A DNA stretch of 64,000 bases from Allosphingosinicella sp. (GCA_035942355.1 DASZDE010000073.1:8773-72772); one strand, 5' to 3'; positions 19,172-55,399 are shown, numbered from the stretch's first letter. The notes: generated from the sequence alone by a model not told the origin. A program made the numbers and translations.

Positions 19172-20422
19172 ATGCCGCCCGTCGATCGCCGCCAATTCGT
19201 CGCGCTGGCCGGGGCCGCGGCCACGGCGCTGGCCGCGCCGTCAGCCGCCGCGCCGGTGAAGCCCGCGCTCGCACCGATGACCGGCGGCGCCAAGCCGATC
19301 GGCCGCGACGAGCGCGAGCGCCGGCTCGCCAAGGCGCAGCGGCTGATGCGCGAGCACGGGCTGTCCGCGCTGCTGATCGAGCCGGGCTCGAGCCTGGTCT
19401 ATTTCACCGGCGTGCAATGGTGGCGCAGCGAGCGGCTGACGGCGGCGGTGATCCCGGCCGAAGGCGAGGCTGCGATCTTCACGCCGTTCTTCGAGGAGCC
19501 GTCGGTGCGCGAGAGCCTCGGCATCGCCGCCGAGATCCGCACCTGGAACGAGGATGACGACCCGCTGCAGCTGGTCGGCGGCTGGCTCAAGCAGCGGAAG
19601 CTCGGCGCCGGCCCGGTGGGGATCGAGGAGACGGTCCGCTATTTCGCCGTCGACGGGTTGAAGCGCGCGCTCCCCGGCGCCGAGATCCGTTCCGGTGCGG
19701 CGGTGGTGCGCGGCTGCCGAATGGTCAAGTCGCCGGCCGAGCTCGCGCTGATGCAGCTGGCCGCCGACGTCACCGTCGCCGCCTACCGCCATACCTGGCC
19801 GCGGATCGAGCGCGGCATGACCCCCGCCGACATAGGCGCGATCATGAATGAGGCGACGGCCGCGCTCGGCGGCCATCCGGAGTTCGCGCTGGTGCTGCTC
19901 GGCGAGGCGAGCGCCTATCCGCACGGCTCGGGCAAGCCGCAGCAGGTCAGGGAGGGCGAGGTGGTGCTGATGGATTGCGGCTGCAGCGTCCACGGCTACC
20001 AGTCCGACATCTCGCGCACCTTCGTGTTCGGCGAGCCGAGCAAGCGCCAGCGCGAGGTCTGGAACCATATGAAGCGTGGCCAGGAGATCGCCTTCGCGGC
20101 CGCACGGCCCGGCGCGCCAGCCGGCAGCGTCGACGATGCCGTGCGCGCTTATTACGAGACGCTCGGCTACGGCCCCGATTATCGCCTGCCCGGCCTGTCG
20201 CACCGCACCGGCCACGGCATCGGACTCGACGGCCACGAGCCGGTCAACCTGGTGCGCGGCGAGACGACGCCGCTGGCGCCGGGCATGTGCTTCTCGAACG
20301 AGCCCGGCATTTACATACCGGGCGCCTTCGGGGTCAGGCTCGAGGATTGCTTCCACATGACCGCGACCGGGCCGCGCTGGTTCTCGACCCCGCCGCCGTC
20401 GCTCGGCAAGCCGGTCGGCTAG
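19172..20422 (+). CDS. Xaa-Pro aminopeptidase (M24) with Tat signal
   Basis: DRRQF Tat motif; DCGC..GYQSDISRT, HRTGHGIG, NEPG, GVRLED. Confidence 0.92.
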   Translation: MPPVDRRQFVALAGAAATALAAPSAAAPVKPALAPMTGGAKPIGRDERERRLAKAQRLMREHGLSALLIEPGSSLVYFTGVQWWRSERLTAAVIPAEGEAAIFTPFFEEPSVRESLGIAAEIRTWNEDDDPLQLVGGWLKQRKLGAGPVGIEETVRYFAVDGLKRALPGAEIRSGAAVVRGCRMVKSPAELALMQLAADVTVAAYRHTWPRIERGMTPADIGAIMNEATAALGGHPEFALVLLGEASAYPHGSGKPQQVREGEVVLMDCGCSVHGYQSDISRTFVFGEPSKRQREVWNHMKRGQEIAFAAARPGAPAGSVDDAVRAYYETLGYGPDYRLPGLSHRTGHGIGLDGHEPVNLVRGETTPLAPGMCFSNEPGIYIPGAFGVRLEDCFHMTATGPRWFSTPPPSLGKPVG

Positions 20423-43327: not shown

Positions 43328-45304
43328 CTAGACGGCTTCGAATTCAAGGATCACGGCATCGACGGCGAGGCTGTCGCCCGGCTTCGCCTCGACCTTGCCG
43401 ACGATGGCCGCTTTTTCCGCCCTGAGGATGTTCTCCATCTTCATCGCCTCGACCACGGCAAGCGGCTGGCCGGCCTCCACCCGGTCCCCTTCCCCGACGT
43501 GGAGCGCGGTCAGCAGCCCGGGCATCGGGCACAACAGGTAGCGTGACAGATCGGGCGGAACCTTGTCGATCATGTGCGCGGCGAGATCGGCCTCACGCGG
43601 CGTCAGCACCCGCACCGCATATCGCGCGCCGCGGGTGGTGAGCCGCCAGCCGAGGGTCGTGCGCTCGACCCCGACTGTGAGCCTTTCGCCGCCGATGGTG
43701 GCGCGAACCAGCCGCTGGCCCGGCGCGAAGCCGACCTCCACGGCCCACTCGTCATCCCCGACCCTGACGCAGTCCGCGGCTATGCCGACGGCGTAATCCA
43801 TCGCGCCGATCCGGACCACCCACTGGGTCGGCGCGTCACGCGGGGTCCCGAGCTGCCCGTCTATGCCGAGCGCCCGCGCCGCCGTCGCGGCCGAGAGCAG
43901 GCCGGCCAGCGCCGCCAGCCGCGCCGTCAGCCGCGCGTCGGGCGGCGCGCCGTGGAAGCCGTCCGGATATTCCTCGGCGATGAAGCCGGTCGTGAGGCGG
44001 CCCTCCCGGAAGCGCGGGTGCTGCATCAGCGCCGACAGGAAATCGACATTGTGACCGATGCCGTCGATGAGGAAACCGTCGAGCGCCTCGATCTGGCGGT
44101 CGATCGCCTCATCCCTCGTCGCGCCCCAGGTGATCAGCTTGGCGATCATCGGATCGTAGAACATCGAGACTTCGCCGCCCTCGAACGCGCCGTCGTCCAC
44201 GCGAACGCCCGGCTCCTCCGCCGGCGGTCGGTAGCGGATCAGCCGGCCGGTGGACGGAAGGAAGCCGCGATACGGGTCCTCCGCATAGATCCGGCCTTCG
44301 ATCGCCCAGCCGTCGAGCCTGACCTCCTCCTGCACCAAGCCGAGCTCTTCGCCGGCGGCGACCCGGATCATCAGCTCGACCAGGTCGAGCCCGGTAACGC
44401 ATTCGGTCACCGGATGCTCGACCTGCAGGCGGGTGGTCATTTCGAGGAAGTAGAAGCTGCGGTCGGCGGCGGTGATGAACTCGACCGTGCCGGCGGAGAA
44501 ATAGCCGACCGCCTGGGCGAGCGCGACCGCCTGCTCGCCCATCGCCTTGCGCATGTCGGGCGTGACGAACGGGGACGGGGCTTCCTCGACCACCTTCTGG
44601 TGGCGGCGTTGCACCGAGCATTCGCGCTCGCCGAGATAGACCATGTTGCCATGCTTGTCGCCGAGCAGCTGGATCTCGATGTGGCGCGGGCGCTCGATGA
44701 ACTTCTCGACGAGCACGCGTTCGTCGCCGAAGCTGGCAAGGCCTTCGCGGCGGACGCTGTCGAAGGTCTCGCGGACCTCTTTTTCCGACCCGGCGACCCG
44801 CATGCCCTTGCCGCCGCCGCCCGCCGACGCCTTCATCATCACCGGATAACCGATGCCGGCGGCGATCTCGACCGCATGATCGGTGTCTCTTATCTCGCCG
44901 ATGCAGCCGGGCACGACGCTTACGCCTGCCTTTTGCGCGATCTTCTTCGATTCGATCTTGTCGCCCATCGCCGCGATCGCGCCCGGCGGGGGGCCGATGA
45001 AGGCGATCTTCTCCTTGGCGAGCGCCTTGGCGAAGCTCTCGCGCTCGCTCAGGAAGCCGTAGCCCGGATGCACCGCCTCCGCGCCGGTCTCCCTGCAAGC
45101 GAGGATGATGAGGTCGGCACGCAAATAACTTTCGCTTGCCGGCGGCGGTCCCAGTCGCACCGCTTCGTCGGCCAGCTCCACATGCGGCGCCCGCGCATCG
45201 GCGTCCGAATAGACAGCGACCGTCGCGATCCCCATCCTTCGCGCGGTGCGGATGACGCGGCAGGCGATCTCACCGCGATTGGCGATCAGTAATTTAGCGA
45301 ACAT
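43328..45304 (-). CDS. pccA: Propionyl-CoA carboxylase alpha subunit (biotin carboxylase plus BCCP)
   Basis: LLIANRGEIACRV, HPGYGFLSE, KASAGGGGKGMR, RLQVEHPVTE, EAMKME. Confidence 0.93.
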   Translation of the reverse strand: MFAKLLIANRGEIACRVIRTARRMGIATVAVYSDADARAPHVELADEAVRLGPPPASESYLRADLIILACRETGAEAVHPGYGFLSERESFAKALAKEKIAFIGPPPGAIAAMGDKIESKKIAQKAGVSVVPGCIGEIRDTDHAVEIAAGIGYPVMMKASAGGGGKGMRVAGSEKEVRETFDSVRREGLASFGDERVLVEKFIERPRHIEIQLLGDKHGNMVYLGERECSVQRRHQKVVEEAPSPFVTPDMRKAMGEQAVALAQAVGYFSAGTVEFITAADRSFYFLEMTTRLQVEHPVTECVTGLDLVELMIRVAAGEELGLVQEEVRLDGWAIEGRIYAEDPYRGFLPSTGRLIRYRPPAEEPGVRVDDGAFEGGEVSMFYDPMIAKLITWGATRDEAIDRQIEALDGFLIDGIGHNVDFLSALMQHPRFREGRLTTGFIAEEYPDGFHGAPPDARLTARLAALAGLLSAATAARALGIDGQLGTPRDAPTQWVVRIGAMDYAVGIAADCVRVGDDEWAVEVGFAPGQRLVRATIGGERLTVGVERTTLGWRLTTRGARYAVRVLTPREADLAAHMIDKVPPDLSRYLLCPMPGLLTALHVGEGDRVEAGQPLAVVEAMKMENILRAEKAAIVGKVEAKPGDSLAVDAVILEFEAV

Positions 45305-45341: not shown

Positions 45342-45887
45342 TCATTTTGCTTCCTGCCCGAAGCCGGGGCCGCTCTGCAAAGACAAGTCTATCTGCTGGC
45401 CTCCCGGCTCCGCATGAAGCCGGTAGAGGCTGACCGGCGCGCCACCAGGCGCCGCCCATGTCCAGGACAGGCTGGTCCCTTTCGAGCTGGCGGTTGGCGC
45501 GCTCCCCAACTGACGAGCCAGCATGGCCTCTACGGAGGCTCGAAGCGCTTGCTCATCCACGGCGCCGCGCGTCAAAGTCGTCAAATTACATTGTGGCAGC
45601 GGAAGAGCGCTCTGCCCGGGTATCCGACGAATATAATTGAGTTCGCCGTGCACCGAGGACCAATTCGAGCGGAAGCCCTCCAGAGTCGCGGCTTCGCTTC
45701 GATAGCCCCACGCTGACGCTTTCAATGCTTCCTGCAACGCAGCCAGGCTCTGCAGCCCCGTGAAGCAAATTTTCTCAAATTCCGCGACCGCTTCTTCCTC
45801 GGTCACCGGCACTAAACGAATTTGCGCCGGTGTGCGTCCATCCGAAAGGCTCTGCTGCAGCAGCAACGTAAGAAGCAGGAAATTCAC
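45342..45887 (-). CDS. Hypothetical secreted protein between scpA and pccA
   Basis: GTGA overlap with the scpA stop; hydrophobic N-terminus; visibly less GC-rich codons. Confidence 0.55.
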
Positions 45888-48205
45888 TCCGCCGCTTCCT
45901 CGAGCGGCGGCATGTTGTGGCCGAGCAGCTTGAGCACTTCGCCGGCCGCGTCGACCAGGTTGGTGCCGGGGCCGAAGATCGCCTGGACGCCCGCTTCGCG
46001 GAGCATGTCGTAATCCTGGGCGGGGATGACTCCGCCGACGACGACCTTGATGTCGGGCCGGCCCATGGCGCGGAGACGGCCGATCAGCTCGGGCACCAGC
46101 GTCTTGTGCCCGGCGGCGAGGCTGGAGGCGCCGACCATGTCGACGCCACGCTCGACGGCGAGGCGAGCGCTTTCCTCCGGAGTCTGGAACAGCGGCCCCG
46201 GCACGACTTCGAAGCCAAGATCGGCGAAGGCGGAGGCGACCAGGTTGGCGCCGCGGTCGTGGCCGTCCTGGCCCATCTTGGCGACCAGCATGCGCGGCTT
46301 GCGTCCGAGCCGACGGCCGATGGCCTCGACCCCCTGCTCGGCACGCTGCCAGCGCGGGTCGCCGCGATAGGCGCCGCCATAGATGCCGCTGACCGGCTGC
46401 GGGACGGTGTCGTAGCGGCCCCAGGCCTCCTCCAGCGCCAGGCTGATCTCGCCGAGCGTGGCGCGCGCGCGGGCGGCCTCAACCGCGAGAGCGAGGAGGT
46501 TCGTCTCCACCAACCGTTCGGGCTGAGCTTGTCGAAGCCCTTCACTTCCCTCCCGTTCGGCAGAAGAAAAGGAAGGCCCTTCGACAGGCTCAGGGCGAAC
46601 GGGTGAGCTGGCCGCTTCACGCAACGCGGCCAATGCGGCACGCGTGAGCGCTTCGTTCCTTTCCGCCCGGACCTTTTCGATCCGAGAGATCTGGCCCGAT
46701 CTCACCTTGTCGTTGTCGATCTGGAGGATGTCGTGATGCGCCTCCTCCTCGAGCCGGTAACGGTTGACGCCGACGATCACCGTCTCGCCCCGGTCGACTG
46801 CTGCGGCGCGGGCGGCGCTGGCTTCCTCGATCCGGCGCTTGGGCATGCCGTCGGCCACCGCCTTCGTCATGCCGCCCATCGCCTCGACTTCCTCGATCAG
46901 CGCCCACGCCTGGTCGGCGAGCGCCTGGGTCAGGGCCTCCACATAATAGGAGCCGCCGAGCGGGTCGGCGACGTTGGCGATGCCGGTCTCCTCGGCCAGC
47001 ACCAGCTGTGTGTTGCGCGCGATGCGGGCGGAGAAGTCGGTCGGCAGCGCGATCGCCTCGTCGAAGCTGTTGGTGTGGAGCGACTGCGTCCCGCCCAGCA
47101 CGGCCGCCATGGCTTCCACCGTGGTGCGGATGATGTTGTTATAGGGGTCCTGCTCGGTCAGCGAAACGCCTGAGGTCTGGCAGTGGGTGCGCAGCATCGT
47201 CGACTTCGTATTCTTCGTGCCGAAGCCGTCCATGATCCGGTGCCACAACAAACGCGCGGCCCGGAGTTTGGCGACCTCCATGAAGAAGTTCATGCCGATC
47301 CCGAAGAAAAAGGAGAGGCGCGGCGCGAACGCGTCCACGTCGAGCCCCTTCGCCAAAGCGGTGCGGACATATTCCATGCCGTCGGCGAGCGTGAAGGCGA
47401 GCTCCTGCACCGCCGTCGCGCCCGCTTCCTGCATATGGTAGCCGCTGATCGAGATCGAGTTGAACTTCGGCATGTTGGCCGAAGTGTAGGCGATGATGTC
47501 GGCGACGATCCGCATCGAGGGTTCGGGCGGATAGATGTAGGTGTTGCGGACCGCGAACTCCTTCAAAATGTCGTTCTGGATGGTGCCGGTCAGCTGCGCC
47601 TGCGCGACTCCCTGCTCCTCGGCGGCGACAATGTAGAAAGCGAGCACCGGCAGCACCGCGCCGTTCATCGTCATCGACACCGACATCTCGCCCAGGGGAA
47701 TGCCGTCGAACAGGATCTTCATGTCGTCGAGCGTGTCGATCGCGACGCCCGCCTTGCCGACGTCGCCGGCCACGCGGGGATGATCGGAATCGTAGCCGCG
47801 ATGGGTGGCGAGGTCGAACGCGACCGACAGGCCCTTCTGCCCGGCGGCGAGGTTGCGGCGATAGAAAGCGTTCGAATCCTCGGCGGTGGAGAAGCCGGCA
47901 TATTGGCGGATCGTCCAGGGCCGGCCGGTATACATCGAGGCGTAGGGCCCGCGGGTGAACGGTGCGAAGCCCGGGAGACCGGGTTCGAGATCCGCGGTAT
48001 CCTCGGCGGTGTAGAGCGGTTTGACCGCAAGGCCCTCGGGCGTGTGCCAGCTGAGGTCCTTGCCCTTCACTTCCCTGGCGGCGGCGGCTTGCCAGTCGGC
48101 GAGGGTCGGCCGCGCGGGCGCGGGATCGGAGGGGCGCCTCTGTACCGGCGCTGCACCGGAATCTTCGCCTCTATTCTGTTCGATCGTCGGCTTGTCAGAC
48201 ATCAC
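45884..48205 (-). CDS. scpA: Methylmalonyl-CoA mutase with repeat-derived insertion
   Basis: [46 protein letters not shown]12-binding [10 protein letters not shown]. Confidence 0.97.
46514..46602. repeat. Palindromic RPE-like element, family B, inside scpA
   Basis: CCGTTCGGGCTGAGCTTGTCGAAGCC ... CCCTTCGACAGGCTCAGGGCGAACGG; arms nearly identical to 48210-48294. Confidence 0.9.
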
Positions 48206-48209
48206 ACAC

Positions 48210-48294
48210 CCGTTCGGGCTGAGCCCGTCGAAGCCCTGCCCTTCTCTTGCCGCCTAGGTGAAGGACAGCCCTTCGACAAGCTCAGGGCGAACGG
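48210..48294. repeat. Palindromic RPE-like element, family B, intergenic mce-scpA
   Basis: CCGTTCGGGCTGAGCCCGTCGAAGCCC ... CCCTTCGACAAGCTCAGGGCGAACGG. Confidence 0.9.
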
Positions 48295-48308: not shown

Positions 48309-48728
48309 TCAGTGCCCTTCCTTCGGGCTCTCCATCAACTCGACAAGAACGCCGCCCGTATCCTTTGGGTGCACGAACAGCACCGGAGTGCCGTGCGCGC
48401 CGATGCGCGGTTCGCCCAGCACCCGCGCGCCCTTCGCCTCCATTTCCGCTTTGGCCGCATGGATGTCCGGCACCTCGAAGCAGACATGATGCTGCCCGCC
48501 CGCCGGGTTCTTCTCGAGGAACCTGGCGATCGGCGAATCCTCGCCGAGCGGCTCCAGCAGCTCGATCTGGCTGTTCGGCGTATCGACGAAGCATACCCGC
48601 ACCTTCTGCGCCGGCAGGTCGAACGGCTCCCCGATCGCGGTCGCCCCGAGCAGGTCGCGATAGAGGGCGATGCTCTGCTCGATCGACGGCGTCGCCACCC
48701 CAACATGGTTGATGCGGCCAAGCGTCAT
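48309..48728 (-). CDS. mce: Methylmalonyl-CoA epimerase
   Basis: GRINHVGVAT, QIELLEPL, GGQHHVCFEV, FVHPKDTGGVLVEL. Confidence 0.95.
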   Translation of the reverse strand: MTLGRINHVGVATPSIEQSIALYRDLLGATAIGEPFDLPAQKVRVCFVDTPNSQIELLEPLGEDSPIARFLEKNPAGGQHHVCFEVPDIHAAKAEMEAKGARVLGEPRIGAHGTPVLFVHPKDTGGVLVELMESPKEGH

Positions 48729-49715: not shown

Positions 49716-49918
49716 ACGCCTAAAATGCAAGAGATCAGTAGTAGGCTTTCGACGGCGATCACTAGTCCGAAGGTCCACTTAAGGTTAACGATCCTGTCGT
49801 CGTACGCTCTGCAGTAAACGCAATGTGTTGCAAACGCCTCGTTCGTGGTGCGTCCGCAGTGAAAGCACTCTTTTCCCCATTTATCGAGCAGGTCCCGATC
49901 AGAGCGGAATGTTGTCAT
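49712..49918 (-). CDS. Small CxxC-CxxC protein with C-terminal TM helix
   Basis: CFHC...CVYC then [19 protein letters not shown]; start overlaps the pccB 3' end and is uncertain. Confidence 0.45.
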
Positions 49919-51431
49919 GCTTCTTCCACGGGTTTTCGAGCTGCTTGTCGCGGAGCTTGCGCAGGCCGAGAGCGATGCGGCGGCGCGTGGAATGCGGCAT
50001 GATGACATCGTCGATGAAGCCCATGCTGGCGGCGACGAAGGGGTTGGCGAAGCGCTCCTCATATTCGGCGGTGCGGGCGGCGATCTTGTCGGGGTCGCCT
50101 ATGTCCTTGCGGAAGATGATCTCGACGGCGCCCGTGGCGCCCATCACGGCGATCTCGGCCGAGGGCCACGCATAATTGAGGTCGCCACGGAGGTGCTTGG
50201 AGGACATGACGTCATAGGCGCCGCCATAGGCCTTGCGGGTGATGATCGTGATCTTGGGCACGGTCGCCTCGGCGAAGGCGAACAGCAATTTGGCGCCGTT
50301 CTTGATGATGCCTTCATGCTCCTGCGCGACGCCGGGGAGGAAGCCGGGCACGTCGACGAAGGTGATGATCGGGATATCGAAGGCGTCGCAGAAGCGGACG
50401 AAGCGGGCGGCCTTTTTCGACGACTTGATGTCGAGCACGCCGGCGAGCACCATCGGCTGGTTGGCGACGATTCCGACGGTGCGGCCTTCGACGCGGCCGA
50501 AGCCGCAGATGATGTTGGCGGCGTGCGCCGGCTGGACCTCAAAGAAGTCGCCCTCGTCGAGCGTCTTCCGGATCAGCTCGTGCATGTCGTAGGGCTTGTT
50601 GGGGCTGTCCGGGATGAGCGTGTCGAGGCTGTCCTCCTGCCGGTCCCATGGGTCCATGGTGGGCCGCGTCGGCACCTCATGGCGGTTCGACAAAGGCAGG
50701 AAATCGAAAAAGTCGCGCGTCGCCAGCAAGGCCTCGACATCGTTCTCGAACGCCACGTCGGCGATCCCCGATTTGGTGGTGTGGGTGACGGCGCCGCCCA
50801 ATTCCTCCTGGCTCACCACCTCGTTGGTGACGGTCTTCACCACGTCGGGCCCGGTGACGAACATGTAGCTCGAATCCTTCACCATGAAGATGAAGTCGGT
50901 CATCGCCGGCGAATAGACTGCGCCGCCCGCGCACGGCCCCATGATCAGGCTGATCTGCGGGATCACGCCCGACGCGAGCACGTTGCGCTGGAACACTTCG
51001 GCATAGCCGGCGAGGCTGGCGACGCCCTCCTGGATGCGGGCCCCGCCCGAATCGTTGAGGCCGATCACCGGCGCCCCCACCTTCATCGCCATGTCCATGA
51101 TCTTGCAGATCTTTTGCGCGTGCCGCTCCGAGAGCGAGCCGCCGAACACGGTGAAATCCTGCGCGAACGCATAGACGAGGCGGCCGTTGATCGTACCGGA
51201 GCCGGTGACGACGCCATCGCCCGGCACCTTCTGCTTCTCCATCCCGAACTCGGCGCAATTATGCTCGACGAACATGTCATATTCTTCGAACGAGGCCTCA
51301 TCGAGCAGCACGTCCAGCCGCTCGCGGGCGGTGAGCCGGCCTTTGGCGTGCTGCGCCGCGATCCGCTGCTCGCCGCCGCCGAGGCGGGCCAGCCGCCGCC
51401 GCTCCTCAAGCTCCTCCATCGTCGTCGCCAT
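49899..51431 (-). CDS. pccB: Propionyl-CoA carboxylase beta (carboxyltransferase) subunit
   Basis: [52 protein letters not shown]. Confidence 0.96.
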
Positions 51432-53007: not shown

Positions 53008-53999
53008 TGCGCCGGCCCCTCATAGGCTTCGACGATCCGGCCGACGAGCGGGTGGCGGACGACGTCGCCCGGCCCGAAGCGGATGGTGGCGATTCTCGCG
53101 ATTCCTTCGAGCTTCGATACCGCGTCGGCGAGCCCCGATTGGCCCGGATTGGGCAGGTCGACCTGGAGCGGATCGCCGCACACCACCATCCGGCTGCGCA
53201 TGCCGAAGCGGGTCAGGAACATCTTCATCTGCTGCGGCGTGGTGTTCTGCGCCTCGTCGAGGATGATGAACGCGTCGGACAGGGTGCGGCCGCGCATGAA
53301 GGCGATCGGCGCGATCTCGATCTCGCCGCTTGCGATCCGGCGCTCGACCTGCTCGGTCGGCAGCATGTCGTAAAGCGCGTCGTAGAGTGGGCGGAGCTAG
53401 GGATCGACCTTCTCCTTCATGTCGCCGGGGAGGAAGCCGAGCCGCTCGCCCGCCTCGACCGCCGGGCGCGACAGGATGAGGCGATCGACGGAGCCGCCGA
53501 TCAGCTGCTGCACCGCCTGGGCGACGGCGAGATAGGTCTTGCCGGTGCCGGCCGGGCCGAGCGCGAAGATCATGTCGTCGCGCGCCAGCGCTTCCATATA
53601 GGCAAGCTGGGTCTTCGAGCGCGGCACGATCGTCTTCTTGCGCGTGCGGATCATCACCTTCGGCGGCTCGGCGACGTCGGCCGAGATGATCCCCTCGAGC
53701 GTCGGCTGCCCCGACATTGCGATCACCGCCTCGACCGCGCCCTGGTCGATGTCGTGGCCCTCGTCGAGCCGGTTATAGAGGCCGGTCAGCACGTCGCGCG
53801 CTCGCGCGGCCGCCTCCGGCTCGCCTTCGATCTGCACACGGGTGCCGCGCGCCGCGATGTAGACGCCGAGCCGGTCCTCGATGTTGACGAGGTTGCGGTC
53901 GAACTCGCCGAACAGCGGCCCGAGCAGGTGCGGCTGATCGAACTCGATCTCGAGGCGCGCGCGGGGTTCGACCGTTTCCGCGGCTTTCTTCTGGGCCAT
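53004..53999 (-). pseudogene. phoH: PhoH-like ATPase (YbeZ) interrupted by one in-frame TAG at 53397-53399
   Basis: One continuous frame: GPAGTGKT...[28 protein letters not shown]...FMRGRTL...DEAQN. The stop replaces the conserved Tyr. It could be a sequence error. Confidence 0.75.
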
Positions 54000-55399
54000 T
54001 ACAGCGTCGCCCCAGCGCAGGCTGGGGCCCCAGTGGGTGAGGAATGCAGGAGCCCATCGCCCGCCGGGATGCCAGCCTTCGCTGGCATGACGGTGCCGTG
54101 AAGGCTGTGCGGGCCGGCGGAGACGATTTCCACCTCCACCATATTGCCGATGCCGGCGCCCGTCTCGAGGTGGACCGACTGCAGCCAGGGGGACTTGCCG
54201 ACCAGCTGTCCCGGCTTCTTGCCGCGCCGCTCGATCAGCACCGTGGTGCGCTTCCCGACCGACGCGCGGTTGAAGCCGAGCTGCTGCGCGTTGAGCAGCG
54301 CCTGCAGCCTCTGCAGCCTTTCATCCATGATCTTCGGCGGCACCTGCTGATCCATTGCCGCCGCGGGCGTCCCCGGCCGCGGCGAATATTTGAACGAGTA
54401 GGCCTGCGCGTAGTTCACCTGCGCGGCAATTTTGAGCGTGTCCTCGAACTCCGCGTCGGTTTCGCCCGGAAAGCCGACGATGAAGTCGCCTGAAATTGCG
54501 ATGTCCGGCCGCGCCGCCCGCACCCGCTCGATGATCCGCAGATAGCCGGCGGTGCCATGGTTCCGGTTCATCGCTTTCAGCACCCGATCGCTGCCGGATT
54601 GCACCGGCAAATGGAGGAAGGGCATCAGCTTGCCGACCTCGCCATGGGCGCGGATGAGCCCATCGGACATGTCGCCCGGATGGCTGGTCGTGTAGCGGAT
54701 CCGCGCGAGTCCGGGGAGACGATCGAGCGCCCGCACGAGGCCGTCGAGGCCCTGCGCGCGTCCCTTATCGTCCTCGCCCGCCCAGGCGTTCACATTCTGG
54801 CCGAGCAGAATGATCTCCTTCGCGCCCGCCTCGACGAGGGCTTCGGCCTCGGCGAGGATCGCGCCCCAGCCGCGCGAGACCTCGGCACCGCGCGTATAGG
54901 GAACGACGCAGTAGGTGCAGAATTTGTCGCATCCCTCCTGCACCGTCAAAAAGGCGCTCGGCCCTTGTCCGCGTCGCGCGGGGAGCGCGCCAAACTTGCT
55001 GTCGACCGGCATATCGGTGTCCAGCGCCGGCGCTCCGCGCGCCGCTTTCGCGACCAGCTGCGGCAGGCGGTGGTAGGCCTGCGGCCCGACCACGATGTCG
55101 ACGCTGGGTGCGCGGCGGGGGATCTCGGCGCCCTCCGCCTGGGCAACGCAGCCGGCGACCGCGATCATCGGGCGGGAACCGTCCGGGCGTTTCAACCGGC
55201 CGATGTCGGAATAGACCTTTTCCGCCGCCTTCTCCCGGATGTGGCACGTATTGAGCACGACCAGGTCCGCATCGGCACCCTCGCCGGCGGCGCTCATGCC
55301 CTCGGCTTCGAGCAGCTCCGCCATGCGGTCGCCGTCATAGACGTTCATCTGGCAGCCGAACGATTTGACGCGGAAGGTGCGGGGGTCCTTGTGGATCAT
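53999..55399 (-). CDS. miaB: tRNA-i6A37 methylthiotransferase MiaB
   Basis: [58 protein letters not shown] domain. Confidence 0.97.
54005..54092. repeat. Palindromic element, family A, forming the miaB 3' end
   Basis: GTCGCCCCAGCGCAGGCTGGGGCCCC ... GGGATGCCAGCCTTCGCTGGCATGAC; arms resemble 16300-16384. Confidence 0.75.

Follow-up and report, generated by a model that had tools for sequence, protein, structure and literature searches.

According to our analysis, the methylmalonyl-CoA mutase (MCM) gene of an Allosphingosinicella-like soil sphingomonad contains an 89-nt palindromic repeat that keeps the reading frame open, and the loop of the enzyme at which it lies has repeatedly been occupied by repeats of two unrelated families, in about one quarter of the genus. 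The explanation that we regard as very probable is that a non-autonomous, hairpin-forming repeat was inserted in frame at a permissive loop of the MCM linker, where it would be translated and tolerated. A copy of such an interspersed repeat (27-nt arms, a spacer of ~35 nt, ~85 to 90 nt overall) would have landed in the DNA encoding a helix-helix loop, and a copy with a net length that is a multiple of three would be translated as extra loop residues. The gene is located in a stretch of 64,000 nt (GCA_035942355.1, DASZDE010000073.1:8773-72772), hereafter the window, to which positions refer unless a contig is given; the genome itself is designated G000.

An in-frame palindromic repeat in the MCM gene

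The palindrome (Table 1) was detected by inverted-repeat search with 27-nt arms that are 85% complementary, one arm being called at 46511-46537 and its partner ending at 46605, the two being 41 nt apart. The 27-nt arm pattern has two matches in the window, at 46514 without mismatches and at 48210 with two mismatches, whereas none was expected from 100 shuffles. A minus-strand ORF of 773 aa crosses the palindrome without a stop codon. According to both DNA and protein alignments, 35 residues of this ORF stand where congeners have three, a net gain of 96 nt or 32 aa. The insert-free congeners read REGAK-GDA-NLLAL at the insertion point, with G-D-A/S or similar residues found in 15 of the first 19 congeners and in all outgroups. 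The first-pass annotation had described an 89-bp palindrome with a near-copy at 48210, translated in frame and adding about 30 residues; its coordinates and sequence agree with the arm pattern, the peptide that it quoted and both flanks are correct, the frame is open throughout, and its estimate of the added length is right, given the net gain of 32 aa. In the repeat-free orthologs, where it had proposed to look for the same peptide, that peptide is absent.

The GC-rich palindrome is free of stop codons in two of three entry frames and in all three exit frames, so that translation simply runs through any copy that adds a multiple of three nucleotides, as we infer for the copy in MCM. On the coding strand, the RNA is predicted to fold into one long hairpin, with a minimum free energy of -68.5 kcal/mol over 136 nt (z = -4.5); the 89-nt core by itself has a value of -55 kcal/mol. 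A search of the element against Rfam returned no family at threshold, the best match being a microRNA hairpin model with 40.6 bits versus a gathering score of 97; identity with a known RNA family was rejected, since these were just sub-threshold hairpin look-alikes.

Table 1. Features of the MCM locus, in window coordinates (a dot marks features without an assigned strand)
Feature	Position	Strand	Evidence
Core of the family B palindromic repeat inside the MCM gene (89 nt)	46514..46602	.	Inverted repeat; nhmmer match C73:55286-55374, E = 2e-21; hairpin fold
Arm 1, the exit arm on the coding strand, read as GLRQAQPER	46514..46540	.	Inverted repeat, arm pattern
Arm 2, the entry arm on the coding strand, read as VRPEPVEG	46576..46602	.	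Inverted repeat
Variable CT-rich/AG-rich spacer, itself self-complementary, differing between orthologous copies	46541..46575	.	
35-aa segment (codons 534-568) in place of the three residues G-D-A/S of empty alleles	46502..46606	-	Congener DNA and protein alignments
Methylmalonyl-CoA mutase (MCM), 773 aa, homodimer-type large subunit; start GTG 48205 or ATG 48202	45884..48205	-	ORF, PDB, Pfam, NCBIfam
Sister family B copy in the spacer between epimerase stop and mutase start, ending 5-8 nt before the start codon	48210..48294	.	Inverted repeat, arm pattern, nhmmer
VOC/glyoxalase-family protein, expected methylmalonyl-CoA epimerase; upstream	48309..48728	-	Pfam Glyoxalase_4
Propionyl-CoA carboxylase alpha (biotin carboxylase, PCC_BT, and biotinyl domain); downstream, same direction	43328..45304	-	Pfam
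Propionyl-CoA carboxylase beta (carboxyltransferase); upstream, same direction	49899..51431	-	

The repeat belongs to a dispersed family, here named family B, of which iterated nhmmer searches of the whole genome (3.25 Mb in 190 contigs, 68% G+C) recovered about 33 full and about 9 partial copies. Their length ranges from 79 to 105 nt; the 27-nt arms are nearly invariant, while the ~35-nt spacer, CT-rich and then AG-rich, is variable and self-complementary. Five of these copies were assigned to real coding frames, as judged by GC3 periodicity and Pfam matches. Besides the copy in MCM, there are two in the valyl-tRNA synthetase (ValRS) gene (G000:C153:18599-21553), both in frame, at 19256-19344 and 19949-20037; a partial in-frame copy in UvrA (G000:C40:6193-6259), between the interaction and DNA-binding domains; and a full in-frame copy in ThiC (G000:C96:10561-10647), located in the C-terminal tail and 44 codons from the stop. 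In each of the five, translation would enter through the hydrophilic frame and not through the more hydrophobic one, which reads PFALSLSKG.

The spacer between the epimerase and mutase genes is a second hot spot. A family B copy is located there in G000, G022, G003, G010, and G008, ending 5 to 15 nt before the mutase start codon. Other species have different repeats at this place, or an entire small gene that was inserted, and no spacer separates the two genes in G004 and G001, where they are adjoining or overlapping. Elsewhere in the genome, three single family B arms lie in direct orientation, ~150 to 210 nt apart, within a segment that is duplicated in tandem and immediately precedes an ORF (G000:C190:1-420). 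The arms of a related repeat at G000:C120:6912-7259 have the core CTTCGACARGCTCAGG in common with family B but end in GATGAGCGG instead of GCGAACGG; in view of this common core, family B may be part of a wider superfamily.

Recurrent occupation of the loop and conservation of the arms

A total of 121 congeners were searched, and a loop insert was found in 30 of the 117 congeneric genomes that bear an MCM gene. The alleles that could be read comprised 13 with family B, 13 with an unrelated and longer REP-dimer family of ~135 nt, here named family C, and remnants of 25, 13, and 5 residues. Among the first 25 congeners, three besides the present genome carry family B at the identical nucleotide and in identical orientation and phase. 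Family C occupies the same MCM loop in Sphingomonas yabuuchiae NS355, and a third element was found there in another metagenome-assembled genome (MAG).

On a gene tree of 45 alleles, from which the insert columns had been removed, the state of the loop needs at least 14 changes, a figure that applies to the gene tree and not to the species tree. The starred sister pairs of unlike state are G285 (B) and G232 (C), G353 (B) and G400 (C), and G370 (half of a family C copy) and G020 (a footprint of 2 aa). A single origin of the family B insert was rejected at the level of the MCM gene tree, with an AU p value of 0.0027 against monophyly of the first four B alleles. The multiple origins on the gene tree are compatible with independent insertion, recombination, conversion, or loss, which it cannot tell apart. 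Alleles filled by family B and those filled by family C have common junction residues, A-R-N on the left and E-T on the right, that are absent from empty alleles, and this sequence feature hints at targeting or in situ replacement rather than independent random insertions.

The two ValRS sites display all four combinations of empty and filled states and are occupied by family B, family C-like, or other repeats depending on the species. The filled alleles of ValRS site 1 also have in common about 8 extra residues (W.P.PG...) that are missing from the empty alleles. The simplest reading of the occupation patterns is that tolerance by the protein filters insertions, such that those landing elsewhere in the MCM gene would be purged, and that occupied loops then turn over, the insertions persisting, decaying, being deleted, or being replaced by other repeats.

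The conservation of the arms has to be accounted for as well. Between G000 and either G022 or G014, the arms are identical at 54 of 54 positions, compared with 57 to 60% identity at flanking third codon positions; with a probability of 0.60 for each position, 18 identical third positions out of 18 would arise with a probability of 1e-4. Over the eight alleles of the main B clade, the mean identity is 0.94 in the arms versus 0.71 at flanking third positions. The spacers have diverged freely, with their self-complementarity kept. Relative to the arm consensus, the 13 coding MCM alleles contain 16 synonymous and 11 nonsynonymous mismatches (28% synonymous expected at random), and the corresponding counts for intergenic copies, when these are notionally read in that frame, are 31 synonymous and 38 nonsynonymous. 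As the synonymous bias of the coding alleles is not distinct from that of the intergenic copies (Fisher p = 0.26), selection on the peptide was rejected, and arm conservation is deemed a property of the repeat family and not of being translated. Its source may be a constraint related to mobility or binding, conversion between the copies of the family, or re-insertion in recent times. A single ancient insertion followed by simple neutral decay would not be expected to give this pattern, which calls for gene conversion, for constrained arm sequences, or for recent insertions that hit precisely the same nucleotide more than once.

These data bear directly on whether the insert has been co-opted, i.e., kept by selection because its peptide offers a new surface or because its DNA or mRNA hairpin acts at the domain boundary as a pausing or protein-binding site. 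The excess of arm conservation over flanking synonymous sites, the persistence of the insert across many species, the re-occupation of the loop by unrelated families, and the high stability of the hairpin would all fit such a role. However, the intergenic copies have the same arm conservation and the same variable positions, the spacers are hypervariable, three quarters of the genus do without an insert, deletion remnants exist, the insert is predicted to be disordered, and two unrelated sequences fill the same place; we therefore consider co-option unlikely and the peptide itself presumably neutral. Similarly improbable, in our judgment, is that a strong DNA or mRNA hairpin at the boundary between the barrel and the B12 domain would be useful as such, for example as a translational pause for domain-wise folding or cofactor loading, with repeats being targeted to this place or kept in it. 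If true, this role would explain arm conservation, the re-colonisation by unrelated families, and the junction residues common to family B and family C alleles.

Integrity of the host gene and position of the insert in the protein

Judged from its sequence, the host MCM gene is intact. The encoded protein matches human MCM structures in the PDB (E = 2e-287); Pfam assigns the domains MM_CoA_mutase and B12-binding, the latter at residues 638-753, and the NCBIfam methylmalonyl-CoA mutase equivalog NF006944 is matched with 1206 bits, compared with a cut-off of 876. In an alignment of 41 MCMs, the cobalamin motif (DxHxxG), here GQDGHDRG at 645-652, is invariant, as are many active-site columns that are also kept in the insert-bearing gene; Y102, R220, Y256, H257, K643, D647, and H649 are the counterparts of the catalytic and B12-ligand residues in the Propionibacterium enzyme. 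The gene is flanked by the VOC-family epimerase gene and by the two propionyl-CoA carboxylase genes, all on one strand (Table 1). An ORF of 181 aa without a Pfam match is located between the mutase and propionyl-CoA carboxylase alpha (window 45342-45887, minus strand). A second MCM was not found in the genome, which is 99.9% complete. The open frame, the equivalog score, the kept motifs, the operon context, and the presence of a single MCM make it likely that the insert-bearing enzyme is active.

The first-pass annotation had placed the insert in the linker ahead of the B12-binding domain, and three lines of evidence concur. The alignment with human MCM jumps from query 534/chain 533 to query 568/chain 536, the Pfam boundaries put the B12 domain further downstream, and an AlphaFold model built on 41 sequences (mean pLDDT 79.9, pTM 0.84) predicts helices at 518-533 and 570-579, with pLDDT values of ~97, on either side of the insert. 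The insert itself is modelled as coil, with pLDDT values below 50 at 537-540 and 547-566. In this model, it occupies a loop joining two helices of the linker that connects the substrate barrel to the B12 domain, and the 32 added residues most likely form a disordered, solvent-exposed loop that the enzyme tolerates.

That the gene is instead a pseudogene, or encodes an impaired enzyme in which the insert is damage awaiting purge, appears very unlikely. Nothing speaks for it directly; the MCM tree does give G000 a fairly long branch (0.093-0.17), but the retention of the frame, of the invariant columns, and of the B12 motif, together with a score above the equivalog cut-off, an intact propionyl-CoA operon, and the lack of another MCM, all argue against decay, and insert-bearing MCM alleles are open in more than 25 species. 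Still less credible is the removal of the segment after transcription or translation, in the manner of an intron or an intein. Its only attraction is the theoretical possibility of RNA processing at a hairpin; against it stand the Rfam result given above, a length of 35 residues that is too short for an intein and lacks splicing motifs, the absence of any NCBIfam match to the peptide, and junction sequences that vary between alleles. An assembly artefact of the fragmented MAG has a practically negligible probability, because, although repeats are typical places of misassembly and a second ValRS N-terminal fragment (G000:C45:3-581), 84% identical to the main copy, points to some strain mixture or contamination in the assembly, the same in-frame insert was found at this codon in at least 12 other, independent assemblies, some with contigs of 1.9 to 2.7 Mb, the frame is preserved, and the flanks are contiguous on a 72.8-kb contig.

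Mobility, distribution, and relation to known repeats

The genome contains a single family of Y1 (IS200-like/RAYT-like) transposases, represented by a gene encoding 205 aa (C18:14265-14879), 83 nt from the contig end, and by a broken second copy on C25. No family B arm was found flanking the copy on C18, the nearest repeat being 2 kb away, on a contig that ends 83 nt upstream of the gene. Among 61 congeners, the number of Y1 homologs ranges from 0 to 7 per genome and is unrelated to the abundance of family B: no homolog was found in G353 (186 arm matches), G358 (84), and G005 (70), whereas G017 and G340 have four each and no arm match. A link of the REPIN-RAYT type was rejected, since the transposase neither adjoins family B nor co-varies with it among these congeners. 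Comparison of filled with empty alleles revealed no target-site duplication, either at the MCM loop or in the epimerase-mutase spacer, old junctions possibly having decayed, and no consistent outer extension of the palindrome was found. The search for a parent insertion sequence revealed no pair of arms 121 to 4,000 nt apart in G000, an assembly of 190 contigs, which insertion sequences often break.

The family B arm is present in 55 of the 61 congeneric genomes, with 0 to 186 matches each, and in 79 of 174 genomes of the bacterial family; in a sample of about 100 genomes from other alphaproteobacterial families, it is almost lacking. A small number of genomes from another class of the same phylum likewise contain identical 24-mers of the arm, with copy numbers in the tens (G445 with 93 matches, G784 with 44, and also G735). 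This patchy distribution across classes suggests horizontal transfer of family B or of its mobiliser.

The first-pass annotation had compared the insert with the Rickettsia palindromic elements (RPEs), palindromic repeats that are located in frame in Rickettsia genes and translated (PMC10969869, PMC3733652). The comparison is apt as an analogy and is taken here as such rather than as membership by sequence; the host is a sphingomonad, and the insert peptide matches no NCBIfam model. Both are interspersed palindromes found in frame in unrelated housekeeping genes, which for RPEs include aminoacyl-tRNA synthetases and repair genes and whose peptides were judged compatible with the protein fold; likewise, family B is a multicopy, dispersed palindrome (33 full copies) that keeps the frame open in MCM, ValRS (twice), UvrA, and ThiC. 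Unlike RPEs, family B has a free-living, GC-rich host and a length of ~89 nt versus ~150 nt, and here one MCM loop has been taken by two unrelated families across a genus.

A closer precedent within the alphaproteobacteria is provided by Di Nocera, De Gregorio, and Rocco (2013; PMC3733652), whose text describes GTAG- and CGTC-tagged REP singles and dimers, coding for 20 to 30 aa, inside alphaproteobacterial genes, including those of the sphingomonads S. alaskensis and E. litoralis. The REP-bearing genes named there include tRNA synthetases, truB, uvrA, and other repair genes; in recB, two Xanthomonas species have different REPs at approximately the same position; and the text gives no dedicated transposase as found for the CGTC REPs. 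With intragenic REPs in sphingomonads already published in that report, in-frame palindromic repeats are not new for this bacterial family. MCM was not encountered among the REP-decorated genes named in the text of that report, and a literature search by the peptide and DNA sequence of the repeat and by in-frame palindromic repeats in Sphingomonas returned nothing specific. As defined in the same text, a REP unit consists of a CGTC/TGTC/CCTC or GTAG tag, a stem of 8 to 9 bp, a loop of 4 to 5 nt, and a short CCA-like tail. Family B departs from this definition, since YGTC is internal to its arms and one long hairpin takes the place of an 8- to 9-bp stem with a 4- to 5-nt loop. Family C in the MCM loop and a repeat at window 53997-54092, by comparison, fit the tagged unit of the CGTC/CCTC REPs; the latter repeat, an inverted pair at a gene end, has a CGTC tag, an 8-bp stem starting with AT, a 4-nt loop, and a CCC tail.

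Two further systems resemble family B in architecture. As in the REPIN-RAYT system (Bertels and Rainey 2011, PMC3116915), two inverted arms form a long hairpin, copies number in the tens to hundreds, and single arms occur too, but a RAYT-like transposase neither flanks the repeats nor follows their abundance across the 61 congeners. The dimensions of family B (79 to 105 nt, with 27-nt arms) also fall within the description of bacterial miniature elements (MITEs) of 70 to 300 bp with 15- to 30-bp terminal inverted repeats, no ORF of their own, and occasional in-frame fusions (PMC10969869); unlike MITEs, family B shows no visible target-site duplication in comparisons of filled and empty sites. 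A parent insertion sequence with matching ends was not found in this assembly of 190 contigs.

The MCM insert does not reveal a new kind of system. What our analysis adds is a repeat family outside the published REP definitions, MCM as a host gene, and a quantification, across a genus, of how one loop is occupied, swapped, and cleared. It maps a permissive site in a structurally solved enzyme, the bacterial homolog of human MMUT, as well as in ValRS, and offers matched alleles with and without the insert for tests of the neutrality of such peptides. The turnover of repeats inside genes can be fast relative to speciation, and the MCM loop represents a natural experiment on the creation of new protein sequence by selfish DNA in a free-living host.
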